Below the pieces are notes generated by a model. That model saw only the letters and a program-made list of their open reading frames with translations. It did not search any database and had not been told where the DNA came from. Source: an uncultured Verrucomicrobiae bacterium (GTDB lineage Bacteria > Chlamydiota > Chlamydiia > Chlamydiales > Rhabdochlamydiaceae). Taken from it: 64,000 nt of DNA. The stretch's first letter is position 1. Each line of letters opens with the position of its first letter. The translations under genes and the position numbers were made by a program. The DNA is taken from the NCBI GenBank assembly GCA_963731265.1, contig CAVSUE010000001.1:1824001-1888000 (forward strand), read 5' to 3'. Shown piece by piece: positions 2,854 to 63,656 of this stretch.

Positions 2854-3123
2854 ATGACAATACCTACAGATCCCTCTAAAAGCAGTGGCGGCAGCAATGT
2901 ACCGCCCTCGCAACCCGTGGGGCCTCAGCCAGCCGGCAATATCGACCCCACAGGAGCTTGGTCTAAATTTTTAAGCACTCCGGGCAATGTTGCCACCCCT
3001 GAAGAAGTGAAATTGTTCATGCAGGGGCTGCTAAAAATGTTTAACGTGATCATTCAACAGCAAACGGCCGCTGCTCACCGGGCAGCCGAACAAATGAAAA
3101 AAGCCGAAGAAGGCGAGGATTAG
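2854..3123 (+). CDS. Small hypothetical protein with Ser/Pro-rich N-terminus and helical C-terminus (possible T3SS substrate)
   Basis: 89-aa ORF MTIPTDPSKSSGGSNVPPSQP...MFNVIIQQQTAAAHRAAEQMKKAEEGED. Confidence 0.7.
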   Translation: MTIPTDPSKSSGGSNVPPSQPVGPQPAGNIDPTGAWSKFLSTPGNVATPEEVKLFMQGLLKMFNVIIQQQTAAAHRAAEQMKKAEEGED

Positions 3124-3266
3124 AGCCATTCCCGCTGTGAACTCTTCGAGGACGAGTTTACCCCATTTTTCGAAGTTCAATATCTCATTGAGTCATATGG
3201 ACTTCGAAAAATGGGGGAAAATCGCCGAAAAGATTCCACCGTCGAAGAGGTGCAGCGGAATGGCTC
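3123..3266. mobile_element. Palindromic MITE-like element (family F), followed by an extra end copy at 3283-3297
   Basis: Ends GAGCCATTCCCGCTG / CAGCGGAATGGCTC; inner arms CCCCATTTTTCGAAGT / ACTTCGAAAAATGGGG; starts on the TAG stop of the upstream gene. Confidence 0.75.
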
Positions 3267-3318
3267 GATTAGGTTTCCTCTTGAGCCATCCCGCTGCGGC
3301 ATGGTATCCTCCTTCCCC

Positions 3319-4248
3319 ATGGAATCTCAGGGCGAGTTAACAAATTTTTTCACTGTTTCTTCTGAAGAGGCCTCTACGAGGTTGGACAAACTTTTATCTC
3401 TGCATTTTGCCGGATATTCCCGCTCCTATTTTCAATATCTTATTGATCAGCAATGCGTCCTCGTGAATGGCCAGCGTTTAAAAAAAAGGCACCTTTTACA
3501 AGCCGGGGACGAGGTAGAGGTCTGCTTTCTTCTCACCCCGGAAATTTCTTTAGAGCCTCAGGATATTCCTCTGGATGTTCTTTTTGAAGACGATCATTTG
3601 ATCGTCGTGAACAAACCCGCAGGAATGGTTGTTCATCCTGCCCCCGGTCACCCCAGCCAGACCTTTGTCAACGCGCTTTTATTCCATTGCCGCTCGCTTC
3701 CCGAGACAGACAGCATCCGGCCCGGGATCGTCCATCGGTTGGACAAAGACACGACGGGGGTCCTTCTCGCCGCAAAGACGGCCCAGGCCCACGCAAAATT
3801 AGTCGAGCTATTCTCGGAGCGGCGGATTCAAAAAGATTATTTGGCCATTTGCCTGGGCACCCCAAAAGAGGGTTTGATCGATGCACCCATCAAACGACAT
3901 CCCCTTCAAAGAAAAGAAATGGCCGTGTGCTTTGAGCAAGGCAAAGAGGCCAAGAGCTTATGCAAAGTCCTCAGGAAAAACGGTCAGCTTTCCGTTGTGC
4001 AGATTCAGCTTCTCACCGGACGAACCCATCAGATTCGCGTTCATCTGAAACATATCGGCGCTCCTGTCCTTGGCGATACTGTTTATGGAAGCCCAAGTGC
4101 AAATAAAAGATTTAGTGCTGAGCGGCAACTACTGCACGCATGGCGTCTTCAATTCATCCACCCCATCACAAATTTTCCTATAGATGTTCGAGCCCCGATT
4201 CCCAAAGACTTAATAGCATTTTCCCAATCACTTGATTTTCAATGCTAG
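3319..4248 (+). CDS. rluD: RluA/RluD-family 23S rRNA pseudouridine synthase with S4 domain
   Basis: RLDKLL S4 domain, VVNKPAGMVVHP, HRLDKDTTG, TGRTHQIRVH. The track start at 3211 lies inside the palindromic element, so ATG 3319 (or 3301) is preferred. Confidence 0.92.
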   Translation: MESQGELTNFFTVSSEEASTRLDKLLSLHFAGYSRSYFQYLIDQQCVLVNGQRLKKRHLLQAGDEVEVCFLLTPEISLEPQDIPLDVLFEDDHLIVVNKPAGMVVHPAPGHPSQTFVNALLFHCRSLPETDSIRPGIVHRLDKDTTGVLLAAKTAQAHAKLVELFSERRIQKDYLAICLGTPKEGLIDAPIKRHPLQRKEMAVCFEQGKEAKSLCKVLRKNGQLSVVQIQLLTGRTHQIRVHLKHIGAPVLGDTVYGSPSANKRFSAERQLLHAWRLQFIHPITNFPIDVRAPIPKDLIAFSQSLDFQC

Positions 4249-4339
4249 CCGAATATGCCCCGTTAAGTTATGCTTCGACTGACGGTTTTCTCATTTCAAT
4301 TGCTTATTTTTCTGAGAATTTCTTATTGAGGACTGAATT

Positions 4340-4591
4340 ATGAAAGAGTTTGTCGAATACATCGTAAAGAACCTAGTCGATCATCCTGATCAAGTACGCA
4401 TCAATGAAATTGGCGGTACACATACATTGATCATTGAACTTGCTGTTGAAAAATCAGATATCGGCAAAATTATCGGTAAAAAAGGGAAAACAATTAATGC
4501 CATTCGGACGCTTTTGATGTCTGTAGCAAGCCGAAACGGCATCCGCGTCAACCTCGAAATTATCGAAGAACAAGAAGAAAAAAAACAGTAG
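4340..4591 (+). CDS. khpA: KH-domain RNA-binding protein (UPF0109/KhpA)
   Basis: MKEFVEYIVKNLVDHPDQV...DIGKIIGKKGKTINAIRTLL with GxxG loop; GAGG RBS. Confidence 0.92.
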   Translation: MKEFVEYIVKNLVDHPDQVRINEIGGTHTLIIELAVEKSDIGKIIGKKGKTINAIRTLLMSVASRNGIRVNLEIIEEQEEKKQ

Positions 4592-4600
4592 TTCTTCTTA

Positions 4601-4773
4601 GAGACTGACCACAAACTCAGCTCGGTCGATTTTCGGGTTTTTTGAGCCGCTTTTCGAATTCTTTTTGCGTGGGGCTGTATCAATTGTGTATACTACCCCC
4701 GCAAAAAGAATCGAAAAGCGGACAAATATAATAATCCGAAAAAACGACGAAGCCTGGATTTGTGGTCAGTCTC
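4601..4773. mobile_element. Palindromic MITE-like element, family A (variant terminal repeats), with TTA target duplication
   Basis: TIR GAGACTGACCACAAA / TTTGTGGTCAGTCTC; TTA at 4598-4600 and 4774-4776; core GCCGCTTTTCGAATTCTTTTTGCG...CCCCGCAAAAAGAATCGAAAAGCGG shared with the copies at 27823 and 36310. Confidence 0.85.
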
Positions 4774-7434
4774 TTATTGGACTAGTTTGGGAAGATAAGG
4801 CGAGATCATCGCTTTGCGGGAGTTGATAAGGCCCGCTTTATATTTTAAAACGGCAATGGAAAGCATTCCTTTACCCGAAACGGTTTTTTTCGGCACCTCT
4901 GCAAAACTCTCGGTAAAAATCTGTTCATACTCTTTGGCTTTATCTCCGAAAAATTCTGTGGATAAATGATTTTTCTGGATCTGCGGCGAAGAACGAAAGG
5001 CATTGAGAAATCTCTTCAAATGCTCGATGGACTGTTCTGTAAAAGGAATCCAGATCCACAATTCATCTTGATGTTTATAATCCCCTAGGGTTCCTGCATA
5101 TAAGTCTTCGGCGCCGGCAATCGTGCTGATCATTTGCAAATGCAAATCGAATTCTTTCCCTTCGCGATAAAAATCAAGGGCATTATCGTACCAGCATTTG
5201 CGGAGCACTTCCGCGTGCTTGGCAAATGTGGAATAGTTGCGGGAGAACAATTTCGCCTGCCCGACGCGGGCGCACCCATTTTGTTCTTTCGTATCGGCAA
5301 AAAGTGCGGAAGGGCGTCCTTTCGCGCACAGGATCATATTATTTTCTACAGCTTCTTCTTTGGAGAGGTAGATCTTGCGGTAAAGAGAATAGACGTCGTG
5401 ATTTTGCAAAATCCGCGCTGCCGCTTTGCGGACAAATTCTTGATCGCGTGGAATATCGTCTAGAGAAATGACTTCGACCTCTTTTTCCATCATCAAGGAT
5501 TTCAGGCGATTGATGAGCTCGGCAACGCAAACGATATCTCTTTGCGAGACTTTAGTCAGTAAATCCGTATCGTCGAAAATTCCGTAAAGAAAATGGAGAT
5601 ACTCGACAAATTCTCTCAAAGGGTCGATGTAATAAGAATGTTTGGATTCCGAAACGAGCTGTCTTTGCAGCAGCCGTTTGAACAATTTCTTATTTTTTGC
5701 CGAAGAAAAATTCTTAGCAATCCCGCCGATTTGACTTGCGATTTGCTGTGCGCTCATTCCCCCGGTACTAAAGGCATCGTTGATCTCGAAAGCGAGCTCA
5801 GCGCACGGCACATTGGAGGATTGCGAATCTGTGATATGCACAAGGGCGGCCGAGGTCGTTTGCAGATTGCTTTTATGATGATCGATGACGCTGATCACAT
5901 CCAGATAGGAAGGGATTTTTGTTTCTTCCCGATTGCAGAAATCGCGCAGAGTCACAGTTCCCAGGGTGGTTTTGTACAAATCGTGCGAAAGAACAATCCC
6001 CAGAGGGATTAATTTTCCCTCTTTGTCTGTCGTGGTAACGCTCAAGTAATGATAATTTCCCATTTTACTCTTGATCTCATCCACATCAGCGCGGTAGCTG
6101 ATATGCTGGGGAAAATAACCGAACACATGCGTCTTGATATTCAAGGCGACATCTAAACGATCGACAAAGTTACGGATGCTCAAGATCGCGCTGTCCAATC
6201 CCTGGATGATCTTTTCGATATAATGGAAGATCCGCGGCCTGTTCTCGACAAGAAAGCCCGACCGGTCAAATAACGGAGATTTGTGCATCGATTCGACGAG
6301 TTCGACAAATTCCTGGAAGTCAAAAAGCCCAAGCGCTTTCATCCCCTCGGCAAATTCTTCAAAAGTGCTCTCCAACCCTTTGTGGATACGCAAGACTTTT
6401 GTCAAGTAGGCTTGAACGTATTTGCTCTGGCTCAAGGTAAATTCTTTGGCAGGCTGGCAATCGACGAGTTTTGTCAAAAACACAGCCTTGATGAAAGAAG
6501 GGATGTCCTTCAAAGAGAGCTCTTCTTTAGCAAAAAGCCCGACGAGTTTCACATGCAAATGGTTTTCAAACCATCGCAAACAGTTGTTGAGCAGCATGAT
6601 CACCTGGCGTACGCCTTCCGCGTCGAAATTGCGCCAATCGCCCAAATAAAACCCCTGCTCGTCGACAAGGATGACAGCGGTTTGCATTCGTTCGTGATCG
6701 ATCAGCAAAGTCGATTCATCCGTCTGTTTACGGACCAGGCCTTTCTGCGTCATGAGATCGATGCCCGATAGGGCCAAAGTCGTGCGAGTTTTAGCGAGAA
6801 GATTGAACACACCTTTTCCAAAAATCTTCGAAAAAAGAAAACCGATCTCGATCTGCCTTTCCGGCGCGCCTCCAGGAACGTTCCACAGGTGCAACCCTTC
6901 CGCAACACGCGCCGCAAAAGCATCGACCCACCCCCAAAAAGATGCAATCGTCGTGTCCAGGTCCGGGGACCCATGCGCAGTGACATAATGGGAACCAGGA
7001 TAAATTTTGCCCATGCCCACGGGAAAGAGCAACTGGTATTCATCCCTCGGAATCGCCTTGCCGGCAATCTTCCCACGGGCCTCATAGTTTTTTTCCGCGC
7101 TCAATTGCGAAAATTGGTTGAGCCATAATTCAAAATGCACGAACGCATAAGACTCTAAAATCTTTAGAGCGTTGATCTGTTCGATATAATCGAGAACGGC
7201 CGGCAGCAAAAAGCAAGGCGTTTTTGCTTTTTCAATCAGCTCATAGAGCGCATGATTGACACGCTCGCTCTTTTGCTTGTCGTTCAAGCGGTGGAATTCT
7301 TTTCTTTGAAATTCTTTGAAAAAGGGAGATAGGTTTTCAAATTTATGTGGAACGATTTTAAAATCGCCAAGGTATTTTTCCTCTCGAGGACGGGTAGAAC
7401 CTTTTCCACTCTTACTTGCCGAGCTTTTTTTCAT
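4774..7434 (-). CDS. Large divergent DHH-family protein resembling CBS-domain family II (Mn-dependent) inorganic pyrophosphatase
   Basis: Motifs in the expected order: AHGSPDLD (cf. GHxNPDxD), CBS-like DLMTQKGLV...VILVDEQGFYLG, second CBS-like ...DKEGKLIPLGIVLSHDL, LRDFCN (cf. VDHNE), VIDHH, IFDDTDLL (cf. SDT), DTKE...RVGQ, C-terminal INSRKAMISPYL (cf. VSRKKQVVP). Confidence 0.75.
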   Translation of the reverse strand: MKKSSASKSGKGSTRPREEKYLGDFKIVPHKFENLSPFFKEFQRKEFHRLNDKQKSERVNHALYELIEKAKTPCFLLPAVLDYIEQINALKILESYAFVHFELWLNQFSQLSAEKNYEARGKIAGKAIPRDEYQLLFPVGMGKIYPGSHYVTAHGSPDLDTTIASFWGWVDAFAARVAEGLHLWNVPGGAPERQIEIGFLFSKIFGKGVFNLLAKTRTTLALSGIDLMTQKGLVRKQTDESTLLIDHERMQTAVILVDEQGFYLGDWRNFDAEGVRQVIMLLNNCLRWFENHLHVKLVGLFAKEELSLKDIPSFIKAVFLTKLVDCQPAKEFTLSQSKYVQAYLTKVLRIHKGLESTFEEFAEGMKALGLFDFQEFVELVESMHKSPLFDRSGFLVENRPRIFHYIEKIIQGLDSAILSIRNFVDRLDVALNIKTHVFGYFPQHISYRADVDEIKSKMGNYHYLSVTTTDKEGKLIPLGIVLSHDLYKTTLGTVTLRDFCNREETKIPSYLDVISVIDHHKSNLQTTSAALVHITDSQSSNVPCAELAFEINDAFSTGGMSAQQIASQIGGIAKNFSSAKNKKLFKRLLQRQLVSESKHSYYIDPLREFVEYLHFLYGIFDDTDLLTKVSQRDIVCVAELINRLKSLMMEKEVEVISLDDIPRDQEFVRKAAARILQNHDVYSLYRKIYLSKEEAVENNMILCAKGRPSALFADTKEQNGCARVGQAKLFSRNYSTFAKHAEVLRKCWYDNALDFYREGKEFDLHLQMISTIAGAEDLYAGTLGDYKHQDELWIWIPFTEQSIEHLKRFLNAFRSSPQIQKNHLSTEFFGDKAKEYEQIFTESFAEVPKKTVSGKGMLSIAVLKYKAGLINSRKAMISPYLPKLVQ

Positions 7435-57292: not shown

Positions 57293-57482
57293 ATTCATCA
57301 CAAAAAAAATAGAATAATACATTTTTGTCCCCGCAAAAATGGAATTAACCTCCGCATTATTTTTTTATTCAGAACATCTAGAAGTCTTCAATAGCAAAAA
57401 ACCTCAAAGTGTGTTATTTCTATGGTAAGGGGTAGGTCCTTTGACTTTACCCTTTCCTAAAAAAACTAATAGAGGAAGTTCC

Positions 57483-58142
57483 ATGGTCGACAAGCCTATC
57501 CCCGCAGACATCGAAGACCCCGGCCGCATATATGAAACAATTCCGATAGGCGGCGGCGAATCAGAAAAAAGCGGCCTCGCCGTCCCTACACAGCAATTTT
57601 CTGCGTTTATGAAGCCAGGAAATCCCATGGAGACCGCGGGAAAATCCCCCATGATTTCACCTTTCGGTCTCATGCAAGGGCAGCCTCCTCTCGCCCAAGC
57701 GCCGACAATGGAGACCTTGGTTGCGCAAGTCAATAATGTTCAAAGCACGATGGGCGATATCAACTCGCAACTCAACACTCCTAACCTGAAACTCAAAGCA
57801 TCGACCAAATACTTGGTTAAAAGCAAACTGACGGATGCCAATGACCACTTGCGCACGGCGAATGCCAAACTCGGTGGGGGGATGCCCGAAGAGGCCGACA
57901 TCTCAAAATTTACGGGGCCTTTAGGCCGCTTCTTCGCTTATTTGACCGATGGACAAAACCAAATGAATTCCGCTAAGCAGCAGCTCCAAAACATGAAAGA
58001 TCAAGGGGGAACCCTTTCCCCGGGAGACTTTCTCCTCGTCCAGGTCAAGCTGAACAAAGCGCAGCAATTATTGGAATTTACTTCGGTTCTCTTGTCTAAT
58101 GCCGTTTCTACGATTAAACAAATGATGCAAGTCCAACTTTAA
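57483..58142 (+). CDS. CT668-position protein with SctI (inner rod)-like C-terminus
   Basis: ATG 57483 with GAGG RBS; LSPGDFLLVQVKLNKAQQLLEFTSVLLSNAVSTIKQMMQVQL. Confidence 0.7.
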   Translation: MVDKPIPADIEDPGRIYETIPIGGGESEKSGLAVPTQQFSAFMKPGNPMETAGKSPMISPFGLMQGQPPLAQAPTMETLVAQVNNVQSTMGDINSQLNTPNLKLKASTKYLVKSKLTDANDHLRTANAKLGGGMPEEADISKFTGPLGRFFAYLTDGQNQMNSAKQQLQNMKDQGGTLSPGDFLLVQVKLNKAQQLLEFTSVLLSNAVSTIKQMMQVQL

Positions 58143-59735: not shown

Positions 59736-60275
59736 ATGGAAGAATCCTCTAAACACTATCCTCTTGAGCAGATCGCAATCATCAAACAAAAAAAGCTCGA
59801 TGAGGCCGAAAGGGTCCTCCGCGAGAAAAAAAAGGCCTTGGAGCGGGAAGAAGAAAAATTGGCTGTCGTCGAGAAAGAACGGAACGAAGTCAAAGACCAT
59901 CGATTTGCCAAACTCACCCAACTGCGCGAAAAAATGGACGAAGGTGCCCCTTCCGACAAGATCCAGCAAATGCGTTACTACCTAAAAGTCGTCGATGAAA
60001 AACTGAAAGCCAAAGAAATCAAAGTCAAAGAACAGCAAAAACAAGTGGAAACAGCTAAGCAGCAGGTGGAAGCCGCCCGCAAAGATCTTGTTAAAAAACA
60101 GCAAGACGTTGAAAAGATCCAGACCCACCGCAATGAATGGGAAAAAGAAATGCACGCCCTGGCCGAGCACAAAGAAGCCCTTGAAACGGACGAAATGGGT
60201 TCCGTACTCCACCAACGCCGCCAAGTCGCCAGCAAAAAAGCCCACTCTCACTCCAAAAAAAAGAAACACCATTAA
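59736..60275 (+). CDS. cdsO: T3SS stalk protein (SctO), coiled coil
   Basis: YPLEQIAIIKQKKLDEAER; long coiled coil ending ETDEMG; follows cdsN. Confidence 0.85.
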   Translation: MEESSKHYPLEQIAIIKQKKLDEAERVLREKKKALEREEEKLAVVEKERNEVKDHRFAKLTQLREKMDEGAPSDKIQQMRYYLKVVDEKLKAKEIKVKEQQKQVETAKQQVEAARKDLVKKQQDVEKIQTHRNEWEKEMHALAEHKEALETDEMGSVLHQRRQVASKKAHSHSKKKKHH

Positions 60276-60358: not shown

Positions 60359-61744
60359 ATGGTGGATGTGAGCAAAGTTGAAGGGCCTTCCGGCTCTCCA
60401 GAAAGTTTTGGGAAAAAAGATAAGGGTTCCGTCGAGGGTGACAAATTCAAAGATGCGATGCGCAAGCGGGTCACCGAAGTAAGCCAAATCGATCCCGACG
60501 AACAAAAAAAACGTAAGCGGCGTGAAGAGGCTGAAGAAGAAGAACCGGCCGAAGGGACGAGCACTGGCCCCGCGACTACCCCTTCCCAAGTTACGCCTTT
60601 TTCTCTCGAGAAAGAGCAAAAAAAAGTCAGCCCCTTAGACATGCAGGGGCCTGGGACTCCCCCTACAGAATCTGCCCAAAAGGTCTCGATGACTGCCCCT
60701 TCGTCAGAGGAAATGGCCGATGATTCCGGAATGCTGGAAGAGGAAGCCTTCCTAGAAAATATTCCAAGCCCGATTTCCGTGGGTGACATGACGGAACGTT
60801 CTATTTCCCAACCTCCCCTTTCGACTCCTCAACCCCCCGTTTCTGAAGGGATGGCCCCTCCAACGAGACAGCCTTCTGTGGCTGCGGCCGCGGAATCAGG
60901 ACAGGAAACAGGACAGCGGCCTCCGGGCAGGCAGCCCTCTCGCCCTCCGGTCGGGCCCCCTCCCGAAAAAAAACCGACCGCTAAGGGGATGGGGCTTGGA
61001 TCGGGACGCCCGCAAGAGCCAAAACAGGCATCCCCTGTTCCAGAAAAAAAAGGCACGACTGGCGCGGAATTAGAACAAACCTCGCTCGCAAAAGCAAGAG
61101 ACACTTCAGGATTTTTTGAACAGCTTGGCCAAGAAGGAGGAGAAAAGGAGGGCAAACCCACAAAAACTCCTGAAGAATTGGCTCAAGAAGCCGCACTTCA
61201 AGAGGCTGTCCCTGCCCAGCCTCCTCCGTTTGCCCCTACACCGGAAGGGGAAAAAAAAGAAAAGCCTGGTGAGGAGCCGGGGTTAGGCGCTTCCCCAGCA
61301 ATCCCTGGAGAACTCCCCGGCATTGCCCTTCCGCCAGCCACGCCCGAGGCTTTGCCATCTTATGCCAATATCCACCCTCAAGTCATGGAACTTTTTGACA
61401 GAATGGTCGGGGTGATGACTGTCATGTCGATGTCAGGCATTACAGAAACAGTGATTACTTTAAACTCCCCTCAATTTGCCTCTTCTGTTTTTTTCGGGAG
61501 TCAAATTATAATCCAAGAGTACAGCACAGCCCCTCAAGCTTATAACATCCAACTTATCGGGACACCTCAAGCAGTAGCACTTTTTCAAGGCAATGCCGAG
61601 GATTTGATGGCGGCATTTCAAGCGGGCAACTATAATTTCCGTGTCAACCGGCTGGAAACGGGTCATTTGACCGATCGCCCTTTGTTTAAGCGCAAAGAGA
61701 AGGCTGGGGGAGAAAAAGACGCAGGAGGAGGAACCCAATCATGA
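60359..61744 (+). CDS. SctP/CdsP-like ruler protein, long form (461 aa)
   Basis: Position between cdsO and cdsQ; long Pro/Glu-rich disordered middle; globular C-terminal domain QVMELFDRMVGVMTVM...EYSTAPQAYNIQL...NFRVNRLET. Confidence 0.7.
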   Translation: MVDVSKVEGPSGSPESFGKKDKGSVEGDKFKDAMRKRVTEVSQIDPDEQKKRKRREEAEEEEPAEGTSTGPATTPSQVTPFSLEKEQKKVSPLDMQGPGTPPTESAQKVSMTAPSSEEMADDSGMLEEEAFLENIPSPISVGDMTERSISQPPLSTPQPPVSEGMAPPTRQPSVAAAAESGQETGQRPPGRQPSRPPVGPPPEKKPTAKGMGLGSGRPQEPKQASPVPEKKGTTGAELEQTSLAKARDTSGFFEQLGQEGGEKEGKPTKTPEELAQEAALQEAVPAQPPPFAPTPEGEKKEKPGEEPGLGASPAIPGELPGIALPPATPEALPSYANIHPQVMELFDRMVGVMTVMSMSGITETVITLNSPQFASSVFFGSQIIIQEYSTAPQAYNIQLIGTPQAVALFQGNAEDLMAAFQAGNYNFRVNRLETGHLTDRPLFKRKEKAGGEKDAGGGTQS

Positions 61745-62451
61745 ATCCAGTATTGCCGCAAGTTCTATTACGCAAGGTTTCCCCAGAGTCGCAAGAAGCG
61801 CCGGAAGGCCATGCCTCTGATGGGCATTTTCGGGAATTGTTGAAAACTATGCCCGTCGATGAGAACCTTCGCGAGAAAGACTTGTTTGCATTGATTGAGG
61901 AAGAAGAAGCTGAAGAAATTGTGGAAGGAGCTCCGGTCGTTCCGTTCCCTATCCGTTCTTCTCCTGAACAAAAAAAAGAAGGAATCGATGCGCGCATGGC
62001 CGCCATGCCTGCCAATATCCCTCTGCCGTTTTTCTCTTCTTTTTCAAATACGCCTTCTACAACACAGAGTTCTTTATTTCCTCAAATCCAAGCGTTGTTT
62101 GAAAAAATGGCCTCGACAATGATTGTGATGGAGACATCGGGAGAAACGGAAACAACTTTATTTCTCGACAGCCCGCAATTCTCTTCTTCGGTTTTATTCG
62201 GCACAAAAATCACCATCCGCGAATTCAGCACGGCCCCAAAAGCGTTTAACGTCGAAATTGTCGCCTCGCCGCTGGCAATCAACACCATCGACCCTTGCAA
62301 AAACGATCTTTTGGCAGCTTTTCAAAAAAGCCATTTCAACTTTTCCATACATCGTTTTGAAACTCATCTTCACACAGACGACCGTCCCGTATTGCACAGA
62401 AAAGAAAACAGCGATGGCGATCAACAAGAAAGCGACGGAGGCCGTCAATGA
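61741..62451 (+). CDS. SctP/CdsP-like paralogue, short form (236 aa)
   Basis: Same C-terminal domain QIQALFEKMASTMIVM...EFSTAPKAFNVEI...NFSIHRFET; ATGA overlaps on both sides. Confidence 0.7.
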   Translation: MNPVLPQVLLRKVSPESQEAPEGHASDGHFRELLKTMPVDENLREKDLFALIEEEEAEEIVEGAPVVPFPIRSSPEQKKEGIDARMAAMPANIPLPFFSSFSNTPSTTQSSLFPQIQALFEKMASTMIVMETSGETETTLFLDSPQFSSSVLFGTKITIREFSTAPKAFNVEIVASPLAINTIDPCKNDLLAAFQKSHFNFSIHRFETHLHTDDRPVLHRKENSDGDQQESDGGRQ

Positions 62452-63656
62452 TCCAGGCGCCTCTTGATTGGGTCAAAGAAATCCATCTCGCTCTCATCGA
62501 AGCTAAAGAAATCCCCCTTCATGGATTCGCACCGGCTTTTCCATGGGAGGAATGTTCCCGAAAAATCGCTTCCGCTTTGGAAATGCCAGAATTGAGAATT
62601 TCATTTCGACAAACAAAATTTTTAATCCACGACAAAATATTTGAAGGCCTTGGCGCTGGATTTATCGCCATCCCTTTGGAAATGGCTCCATTGAGCGGAA
62701 AAGTGTTCTGGATCATAGCAAAAGAAGATGTGGCAAAATTGACAGCCCTCCTGTTAATTCCCGGGAACGGGACCAAAGGGTTTTCCTCGCCCAAATTTCA
62801 AGAAGGATTTTATTATTTTCTTGCTACGAAAGCACTTGCTGCCATTCATGAACTCAATGCATTTGGCGATCTCTCGCCAAAGATCGCGAAACCCGCCGAA
62901 TTTCCCCCAGAAGAATCTCTCTGCATCGATGTCGAAATCCAACACCCGAAACAGACTTGCTGGGGAAGGCTCGTCTGCCCAGCATCTTTTCATCAAGAAT
63001 TTAAAGCCCACTTTTGCAATCGGGAACCGGCCCCATTGACCAGCGCATTCGCCAAACAGATCGATGTCCCGATCCGAGTCGAAGTCGGTCAAACGGCGCT
63101 CTCTTTAACGGAATGGAAAAATGTATCCGTCGGGGATTTCATTCTCTTGGACCGATGCACCTTTGATCCTCAAACGCATAAAGGGACGGCTATGCTGAGA
63201 CTCCTCAAGACGCCTATTCTGCGCGCGAGGTTGAAGGAAAACACTTTAAAAATTGTCGATTACGCTTTTTACCGCGAGGAACAAAAACCCATGAATCCCC
63301 ATATGCCTCAAGATGATGAAAAACCCGAAGAAATTTCTGAAGAAGTCGAATTCACTTCAGAAGAAAGCGGTGAGATAGGAACTGAGGAAAATCATCTTTG
63401 GTCCGCCGAAAGCGCTGAAGCGATGAGCGAAAAGATGATACCTGCCAGCGAAATTCCTCTCACGTTGACCGTGGAGGTCGCCCGCTTGCGGATCAATCTC
63501 GATAAGCTTCTGCAACTTTCTCCGGGGAATATCCTTGAGCTTCCGATCAAACCCGAACAGGGGGTGGATCTGACCGTCGATGGCAAAAAAGTCGCTAAAG
63601 CAGAGCTGATCAAATTAGGCGACATGCTCGGTGTGAAAATCCTTCAACTAGGCTAA
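62448..63656 (+). CDS. cdsQ: T3SS C-ring/sorting platform protein (SctQ)
   Basis: Two SPOA domains: RVEVGQTALSLTEWKNVSVGDFILLD and LTVEVARLRINLDKLLQLSPGNILEL...AELIKLGDMLGVKILQLG. Confidence 0.92.
   Translation: MIQAPLDWVKEIHLALIEAKEIPLHGFAPAFPWEECSRKIASALEMPELRISFRQTKFLIHDKIFEGLGAGFIAIPLEMAPLSGKVFWIIAKEDVAKLTALLLIPGNGTKGFSSPKFQEGFYYFLATKALAAIHELNAFGDLSPKIAKPAEFPPEESLCIDVEIQHPKQTCWGRLVCPASFHQEFKAHFCNREPAPLTSAFAKQIDVPIRVEVGQTALSLTEWKNVSVGDFILLDRCTFDPQTHKGTAMLRLLKTPILRARLKENTLKIVDYAFYREEQKPMNPHMPQDDEKPEEISEEVEFTSEESGEIGTEENHLWSAESAEAMSEKMIPASEIPLTLTVEVARLRINLDKLLQLSPGNILELPIKPEQGVDLTVDGKKVAKAELIKLGDMLGVKILQLG

Follow-up and report, generated by a model that had tools for sequence, protein, structure and literature searches.

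The 64,000-nucleotide stretch of DNA analyzed here (hereafter the window; contig CAVSUE010000001.1 of assembly GCA_963731265.1, positions 1,824,001 to 1,888,000) contains an injectisome, or type III secretion system (T3SS), gene cluster of a member of the Chlamydiales, in which two intact open reading frames (ORFs) occupy the slot between sctO and sctQ (cdsO and cdsQ). We refer to them as the long and the short copy of an SctP-type protein, give coordinates as window positions except where a locus of a relative is named, and note that the two genes, their parts and their neighbors sctO and sctQ all lie on the + strand. The gene order is sctN, sctO, long, short, sctQ, followed by a kinase-like ORF. 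The flanking genes are readily named: sctO (59736..60275), encoding a YscO/CdsO-like stalk protein of 179 amino acids (aa), matches Pfam PF16789 (YscO-like, E = 1.2e-52), and sctQ (62448..63656), encoding a 402-aa sorting-platform or C-ring protein, matches NCBIfam TIGR02551 (SpaO_YscQ, E = 1.6e-40) as well as Pfam FliMN_C (E = 6.7e-22). Between them, the ORF table and translations place the long copy, 461 aa, at 60359..61744 and the short copy, 236 aa, at 61741..62451, exactly where the initial annotation of this DNA, made from the sequence alone, had put two overlapping reading frames.

Both genes are tightly joined to what follows them. An ATGA overlap at 61741-61744 connects the stop codon of the long gene to the start codon of the short one, and a second ATGA at 62448-62451 does the same for the short gene and sctQ; the junction between sctO and the long gene is an uncoupled gap of 83 nucleotides (nt). 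Read directly from the letters, a Shine-Dalgarno-like GGAGGAGGA (61724..61732) stands 8 nt before the ATG of the short gene at 61741, within the last codons of the long gene, and a GGAGG Shine-Dalgarno sequence (62437..62441) stands 6 nt before the ATG of sctQ at 62448, within the last codons of the short gene. A conserved Gly-Gly near the C terminus of both paralogues coincides with the GGAGG Shine-Dalgarno sequence of the next gene, so part of the tail may be conserved for translation initiation rather than for protein function.

The two proteins resemble each other far beyond chance (BLASTP, 41% identity over 179 residues, E = 2e-39), and the C-terminal motifs and DRP..RKE tail that had been noticed as common to both are present in their alignment. 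Neither protein has a match in Pfam or NCBIfam at E ≤ 0.1, and a sequence search of the PDB at E ≤ 10 gave no meaningful match for either. Structure prediction was more informative. We built AlphaFold2 models on alignments of 120 sequences for the short copy and 66 sequences for the long copy, and compared their folds with 48,161 PDB representatives. In the short copy, residues 111-212 (62071..62376) form a predicted T3S4 (substrate-specificity switch) domain with a predicted local distance difference test score (pLDDT) of 92-98 and the order helix, three strands, helix, strand; in the long copy, residues 334-440 (61358..61678) form the same helix-strand-strand-strand-helix-strand arrangement with a pLDDT of 90-97, followed by a C-terminal tail of about 20 residues. 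With VIA-align, the best match of the short copy was the SS domain of PscP (5cuk_A, chain length 94; Z 11.3, root-mean-square deviation [rmsd] 2.4, 91 residues aligned), followed by the C-terminal domain of FliK (2rrl; Z 8.2), while the next, unrelated match reached Z 5.9. The long copy gave the same picture, with Z 10.6, rmsd 2.5 and 92 aligned residues for 5cuk_A (chain length 94), Z 7.4 for 2rrl and Z 5.4 for the unrelated match that followed. The same two structures were the top two Foldseek matches of the short copy (5cuk, E = 1.3e-3; 2rrl, E = 3.2e-3). A comparison of both C-terminal domains with the T3S4 fold had been proposed as a check in the initial annotation, and both domains show that fold.

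Upstream of the T3S4 domain, the models predict a small helical module and a disordered spacer. The N-terminal module of the long copy (residues 27-56, 60437..60526; pLDDT 57-77) comprises helices at residues 27-41 and 46-56 and holds the common KFKDAM motif, as seen in the motif alignment; the short copy has predicted helices at residues 29-33 and 48-57, the remainder of its first 110 residues being of low confidence. The N-terminal motif proposed as common to the copies is real, with F30 conserved in at least 90% of the 120 sequences, but the likeness is weak: when profiles of residues 1-70 were made from 50 short and from 50 long copies and compared once with each other, only 7 columns aligned, xxFKxxL (positions 30-36 in the short against 28-34 in the long profile), at E = 0.004. 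The spacer of the long copy (residues 58-333, 60530..61357), about 276 residues long, and that of the short copy, about 53, have no predicted secondary structure and a pLDDT of about 40-55. With 18% proline and 14% glutamate in the long spacer, the length difference does lie in the Pro/Glu-rich disordered middle, as had been suggested; a single 12-nt repeat of 2.1 copies (60892-60916) was the only repeat found in the long spacer. On these models, the two genes are tandem SctP-type paralogues, each predicted to consist of an N-terminal module, a disordered spacer, a T3S4 domain and a tail, and the difference between them is essentially the length of the spacer, about 276 versus about 53 residues.

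The genome that contains the window (2.34 Mb, two contigs) has no T3S4 genes besides these two and a single sctU, with its NPVH site. To both proteins, relatives are plentiful. The short protein has 123 homologues at E ≤ 0.001 in a set of 5.8 billion proteins; among the 120 matches listed, most are about 200-260 aa long, and those named by their source are called hypothetical. A profile search of 1.84 billion representatives showed the family to be large: 1160 clusters pass E ≤ 0.001, of which 869 also pass 1e-10 and 368 pass 1e-30, with short and long forms mixed among them. Within the phylum, 266 of 400 scored genomes match the family profile. In the family that includes the window genome, 59 of the 90 scored genomes have at least two matches, 28 have one and 3 have none, and family group f9 is similar (29, 5 and 1 of 35 scored). 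Family group f7 is different, with one match in 66 of 69 scored genomes, none in one, and two in just two genomes, where the matches are pieces of one ORF or a fragment, so this group is effectively single copy. In family group f4, which has genomes of 1.0-1.2 Mb, all 29 scored genomes are without a match to the family profile, and the gene in the sctO-sctQ slot encodes a DUF5421 protein of 281-283 aa, CdsP.

Where the pair is present, its arrangement is regular. At 28 of the 30 loci taken from the phylum scan, two adjacent ORFs, the long upstream of the short, are followed by sctQ; the other two loci hold one ORF. The same order, long before short, is seen in no fewer than seven family groups of chlamydiae, and 50 distinct complete pairs were collected, so the survey of the cdsO-cdsQ interval for joint retention that had been suggested at the outset bore out the expectation across many chlamydial genomes. 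With a more sensitive domain profile, weak short copies also came to light downstream of the long gene in groups f20, f23, f25, f28 and f30, although short-copy matches in distant families are barely detectable (E from 1e-4 to 1e-10). Locus L071, at first scored as single, likewise proved to contain an intact, very divergent short ORF. Because short copies that had been missed were recovered in this way, the single-copy counts are upper bounds.

In two genomes of one family group, G178 (contigs C38 and C50) and G192 (C59 and C20), the long gene and the short-type match lie on separate contigs, which may mean that the two genes are sometimes apart or that these assemblies are fragmented. As for taxonomic labels, public metagenome-assembled genomes (MAGs) that carry the pair are labelled Rhabdochlamydiaceae, Simkaniaceae, Chlamydiae or, in error, as members of other phyla, and many relatives with a chlamydial T3SS cluster (in the range L033-L073) go under the names Verrucomicrobia, Acidobacteria, Anaerolineae and even 'Chlamydia trachomatis'. 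In gene content, these mislabelled MAGs point to environmental chlamydiae.

We then compared the lengths of the proteins, leaving out of the statistics, and of the trees described below, duplicates and truncated or odd loci (L043, L060, L063, L065, L073, L099, L102 and L107). The 50 long copies range from 323 to 584 aa (median, 452), with 197-457 residues before the T3S4 domain, and the 50 short copies from 168 to 251 aa (median, 215), with 51-120 residues before it. The two length classes show zero overlap in the 50 pairs: the part preceding the T3S4 domain (the tether) is 2.4-8.5 times as long in the long copy (median, 3.5), a difference of 119-385 residues. Spacer lengths of the two copies are at most weakly correlated across the pairs (Spearman 0.23, p = 0.11, uncorrected for relatedness). 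At the short extreme, the short copies at L104, L100 and L093 have just 51-60 residues ahead of their T3S4 domain, about the size of the N-terminal module alone. The proteins of 20 single-copy loci (307-482 aa; median, 366; 183-362 residues before the T3S4 domain) are all of the long type, and the short type stands alone in none of the 20.

Both copies bear the mark of purifying selection, which for the short copy had been named as a point to check. In 18 pairwise comparisons within and near the genus of the window genome, Nei-Gojobori estimates of the ratio of nonsynonymous to synonymous substitution rates (dN/dS) for the T3S4 domain were 0.028-0.138 in the long copy (17 of 18 computable) and 0.047-0.356 in the short copy (9 of 18 computable, the others having saturated dS); the N-terminal regions gave about 0.10-0.47 where computable. 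The T3S4 dN was higher in the short copy in all 18 comparisons, by a factor of 1.3-7. In the clade of the window's own family, 24 T3S4 columns are at least 80% conserved in both types, and 22 of these carry the same residue, the other two differing as K/R and F/Y. Both T3S4 domains are therefore under constraint at largely shared positions, and the constraint on the short one is looser.

The history of the pair is less clear-cut. Trees of the T3S4 domain (134 and 82 rows, 121 columns, quick search) are poorly resolved, but in them the short and the long copies of the window's own family are sister groups inside a clade with 99-100% support, which also contains the single-copy proteins of f7, and the short copies of other families form a separate group on long branches. 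Such a branching pattern would point to two duplications or to gene conversion, but the approximately unbiased test does not reject trees that unite all short copies in one clade (p = 0.335). Within the window's own family, proteins from single-copy loci are placed among the long copies. The interval between SctP gene and sctQ was examined in 12 single-copy genomes: in five, sctQ lies close to the SctP gene (gaps of 3, 3, 7 and 16 nt, and one 86-nt overlap), in six, 115-1681 nt of noncoding or unrelated DNA precede sctQ, and in one, sctQ was not found in the stretch examined. We conclude that the short copy has been lost more than once. It is dispensable in some lineages, and the long type is indispensable.

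Some of these intervals merit description in their own right. In single-copy relatives belonging to one genus, unrelated ORFs fill the slot between the SctP gene and sctQ: two ORFs of 282 and 204 aa on the opposite strand at L149 (about 3326-4775, - strand), a 467-aa ORF at L151 (1280-2683), and a 180-aa ORF without T3S4 match at L148 (3023-3565). The site of the short copy appears tolerant of insertions. At L140, the region downstream of the single SctP gene (3080-5500) holds a 76-aa ORF with a Cys/Thr/Gly-rich tail and then ORFs of 461 and 272 aa, which could be a small modified-peptide cluster; sctQ was not found within the 5.5 kb examined there. Finally, the complete genome of L064, which carries the label of a Rhabdochlamydiaceae symbiont of Dictyostelium giganteum, encodes a single SctP of 307 aa, and 311 bp with stops in all frames and no T3S4 similarity (4522-4833) separate it from sctQ. 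This stretch may be the remnant of a lost short copy.

Taken on its structural and evolutionary side, the tandem long/short pair of SctP-type genes is a real and conserved feature, and this part of the analysis is solid. The rest of the neighborhood is that of a T3SS cluster: further upstream in the window, Pfam and NCBIfam scans find a CdsD-like gene and small chlamydial needle-cluster genes. A 233-aa ORF upstream of sctN (57441-58142) has sub-threshold matches only, to a CT668-family T3SS protein (NCBIfam, E = 3.4e-4, with a score of 20.5 bits where the cut-off is 335) and to DUF5407, and has no firm name.

What might two such proteins do in one injectisome? The possibility that the roles of ruler and substrate switch are split between them, as the initial annotation had phrased it, does not stand in that form, since both proteins keep a T3S4 domain and 22 of the 24 conserved columns are identical. 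The explanation we favor, tentatively and without calling it probable, is a division of labor, with the long copy as ruler of the needle and main switch and the short copy as an accessory T3S4 protein. Both copies would be exported early, and both T3S4 domains would act on the same SctU switch, a common target suggested by the presence of one sctU and two T3S4 genes in this genome. Needle measurement and the flipping of SctU, the ancestral and indispensable task, would stay with the long copy. The short copy, whose short tether limits the distance over which it can act, would work only much nearer its N-terminal anchor point, and might provide an early checkpoint or modulate the early-substrate phase, e.g., for completion of the rod or basal body or for a minimum length, leaving the final needle length to the long copy. 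That the long copy is primary and the short one accessory is argued by several observations: all 20 single-copy loci are of the long type, proteins encoded singly in the window's own family fall among the long copies in the trees, some members of that family no longer have the short copy, dN of the T3S4 domain is greater for the short copy in every one of the 18 comparisons, and some short tethers span just 51-60 residues. That both copies are functional is in turn supported by the 50 complete pairs, the low dN/dS and the identity of 22 of 24 conserved columns.

Several points weigh against this division of labor. The strictly separate length classes suggest that length itself is selected in both copies, which a second ruler would also explain. 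The tether of the short copy, 107-110 residues, is near the approximately 128 residues of CdsP, and parts of PMC4682100 and PMC10448858 treat CdsP as the needle-length determinant, so a ruler of a chlamydia can have a tether this short. Elsewhere, needle length is regulated by T3S4 proteins as small as EscP, according to a passage in PMC5073101. The short copy also keeps the N-terminal motif, as expected if it were exported and anchored like the long copy.

These points lead to the main alternative, put forward in the initial annotation, which we hold to be unlikely but worth serious thought, namely, that both proteins measure and that whichever flips SctU ends growth of each injectisome, giving two needle-length classes, one of about the order inferred for CdsP of the Chlamydiaceae type and the other roughly three times longer. 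One class might, for example, serve entry across a thick host surface and the other the close contact with the inclusion membrane, a suggestion to which we give the same low likelihood. Coexpression of a long and a short YscP in Yersinia reportedly gave two needle populations (Wagner et al. 2010), and a shared architecture and N-terminal motif, largely alike T3S4 surfaces, the strict separation of classes in 50 pairs (tether ratio 2.4-8.5, median 3.5) and the CdsP-like tether of 107-110 residues would all suit two rulers. It is harder to see why a second ruler should never occur alone among the 20 single-copy loci, be gone from part of the window's own family, shrink to tethers of 51-60 residues in some lineages and evolve faster in its T3S4 domain; moreover, with both genes coupled in one operon, there is little scope for expressing them at different stages. 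For the flagellum, the shorter FliK reportedly dominated in the infrequent-ruler experiments of Erhardt et al. 2011. Were the same true here, the long copy would have almost nothing to do, yet it is the better conserved of the two.

The coupling and fixed order of the genes would favor a fixed stoichiometry and thereby a further possibility, improbable in our estimation, in which the two proteins act as one unit: the short copy would bind the long one (T3S4 to T3S4 or N-module to N-module) or compete with it at SctU or SctO, tuning the timing of the switch. The absence of the short type alone from the 20 single-copy loci fits such a partnership, and the conserved surface positions common to both would permit competition for one site. 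However, the short copy has been lost where an otherwise similar long copy persists, and known T3S4 proteins are described in a section of PMC5073101 as acting singly on SctU. That loss, with the short copy missing in 28 of the 87 matched own-family genomes at the threshold used, its faster evolution in 18 of 18 comparisons, and its near disappearance from profile searches in distant families (E from 1e-4 to 1e-10) could instead describe a functionless, redundant duplicate drifting toward loss. We disfavor this last explanation as very improbable, given that 50 distinct pairs from several family groups have an intact short copy, that its dN/dS is well below 1 wherever computable, that its core residues are conserved and its length class is stable, and that even the very divergent copy at L071 remains an open frame.

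Whichever role the short copy plays, the pair bears on how injectisomes measure their needles. Experiments that separate models of length control use artificial pairs of long and short rulers. How needles and hooks are measured is debated, with a static ruler, an infrequent ruler and a growth terminator under discussion in the relevant parts of bioRxiv 10.1101/2020.03.25.007062 and PMC5073101, and an evolved, stable long/short pair feeding a single SctU is a natural test case for needle measurement. If the injectisome does have two rulers, it would be the natural counterpart of the engineered long-plus-short YscP experiment and would make the one-ruler-per-needle and infrequent-ruler models directly testable. 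A full-text literature search returned no paper on an injectisome with two SctP/T3S4 genes and none that describes an SctP from environmental chlamydiae. In these bacteria, the proteins of the sctO-sctQ slot carry no Pfam or NCBIfam name; the T3S4 fold identifies them as the missing SctP, which is usually duplicated.

Set against known systems, the window proteins have the features of the SctP/FliK class: the T3S4 fold, the position between sctO and sctQ, and a disordered N-terminal region of variable length. According to passages in PMC5073101 and PMC3459982, proteins of this class are early export substrates whose T3S4 domain contacts the cytoplasmic domain of SctU and ends the early-substrate phase; the latter, a broad T3SS study, states that SctP was omitted from its evolutionary analysis on account of weak similarity. 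YscP of Yersinia and PscP of Pseudomonas are alike in lying between sctO and sctQ and in joining an extended or disordered N-terminal part of variable length to a C-terminal T3S4 domain, and the PscP domain 5cuk is the best structural match to both window proteins. PscP differs in that identity is only 14-15% in the structural alignment, with no sequence-profile match, and the YscP and PscP systems have one such gene per injectisome, whereas the window has two in tandem in a fixed long-then-short order. FliK, whose C-terminal domain (2rrl; Pfam PF02120) is the second-best fold match to both, follows the same logic of N-terminal sensing part, linker and T3S4 domain acting on FlhB, the SctU paralogue, but serves the flagellum rather than an injectisome. 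PF02120 has zero matches to the window proteins at E ≤ 0.1, and one of 66 long or single-copy relatives reaches E = 0.005; we therefore file the window proteins under the T3S4 fold and functional class and not under the PF02120 family.

Closest in genomic context is CdsP (CT671; Pfam DUF5421, PF17458), which occupies the slot between cdsO and cdsQ in five Chlamydiaceae-like genomes. It is named as a putative needle-length determinant in portions of PMC4682100, PMC6717882 and PMC10448858, and gene-family surveys place CT671/CdsP, in the parts that concern it, only in the Chlamydiaceae and the family sister to them (PMC1403754, PMC10448858). CdsP is near the short copy in size, and the hhalign alignment leaves about 128 residues before its T3S4-like region, but it is a single gene with cdsQ directly after it, whereas the slot in the window holds a pair. 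An hhalign comparison of the 120-sequence family with 5 CdsP sequences gave a probability of 2.9% and E = 0.015, although the expected C-terminal regions align; at the level of sequence, then, homology with the CdsP of Chlamydiaceae is not demonstrable.

HpaC of Xanthomonas and EscP of enteropathogenic Escherichia coli are small proteins made up mostly of a T3S4 domain and are, in size, the nearest functional analogues of the 236-aa copy. Both control substrate switching through SctU, as set out in parts of PMC5073101 and PMC2427183. HpaC and EscP are each the sole T3S4 protein of their system, whereas the short copy in the window coexists with a long one.

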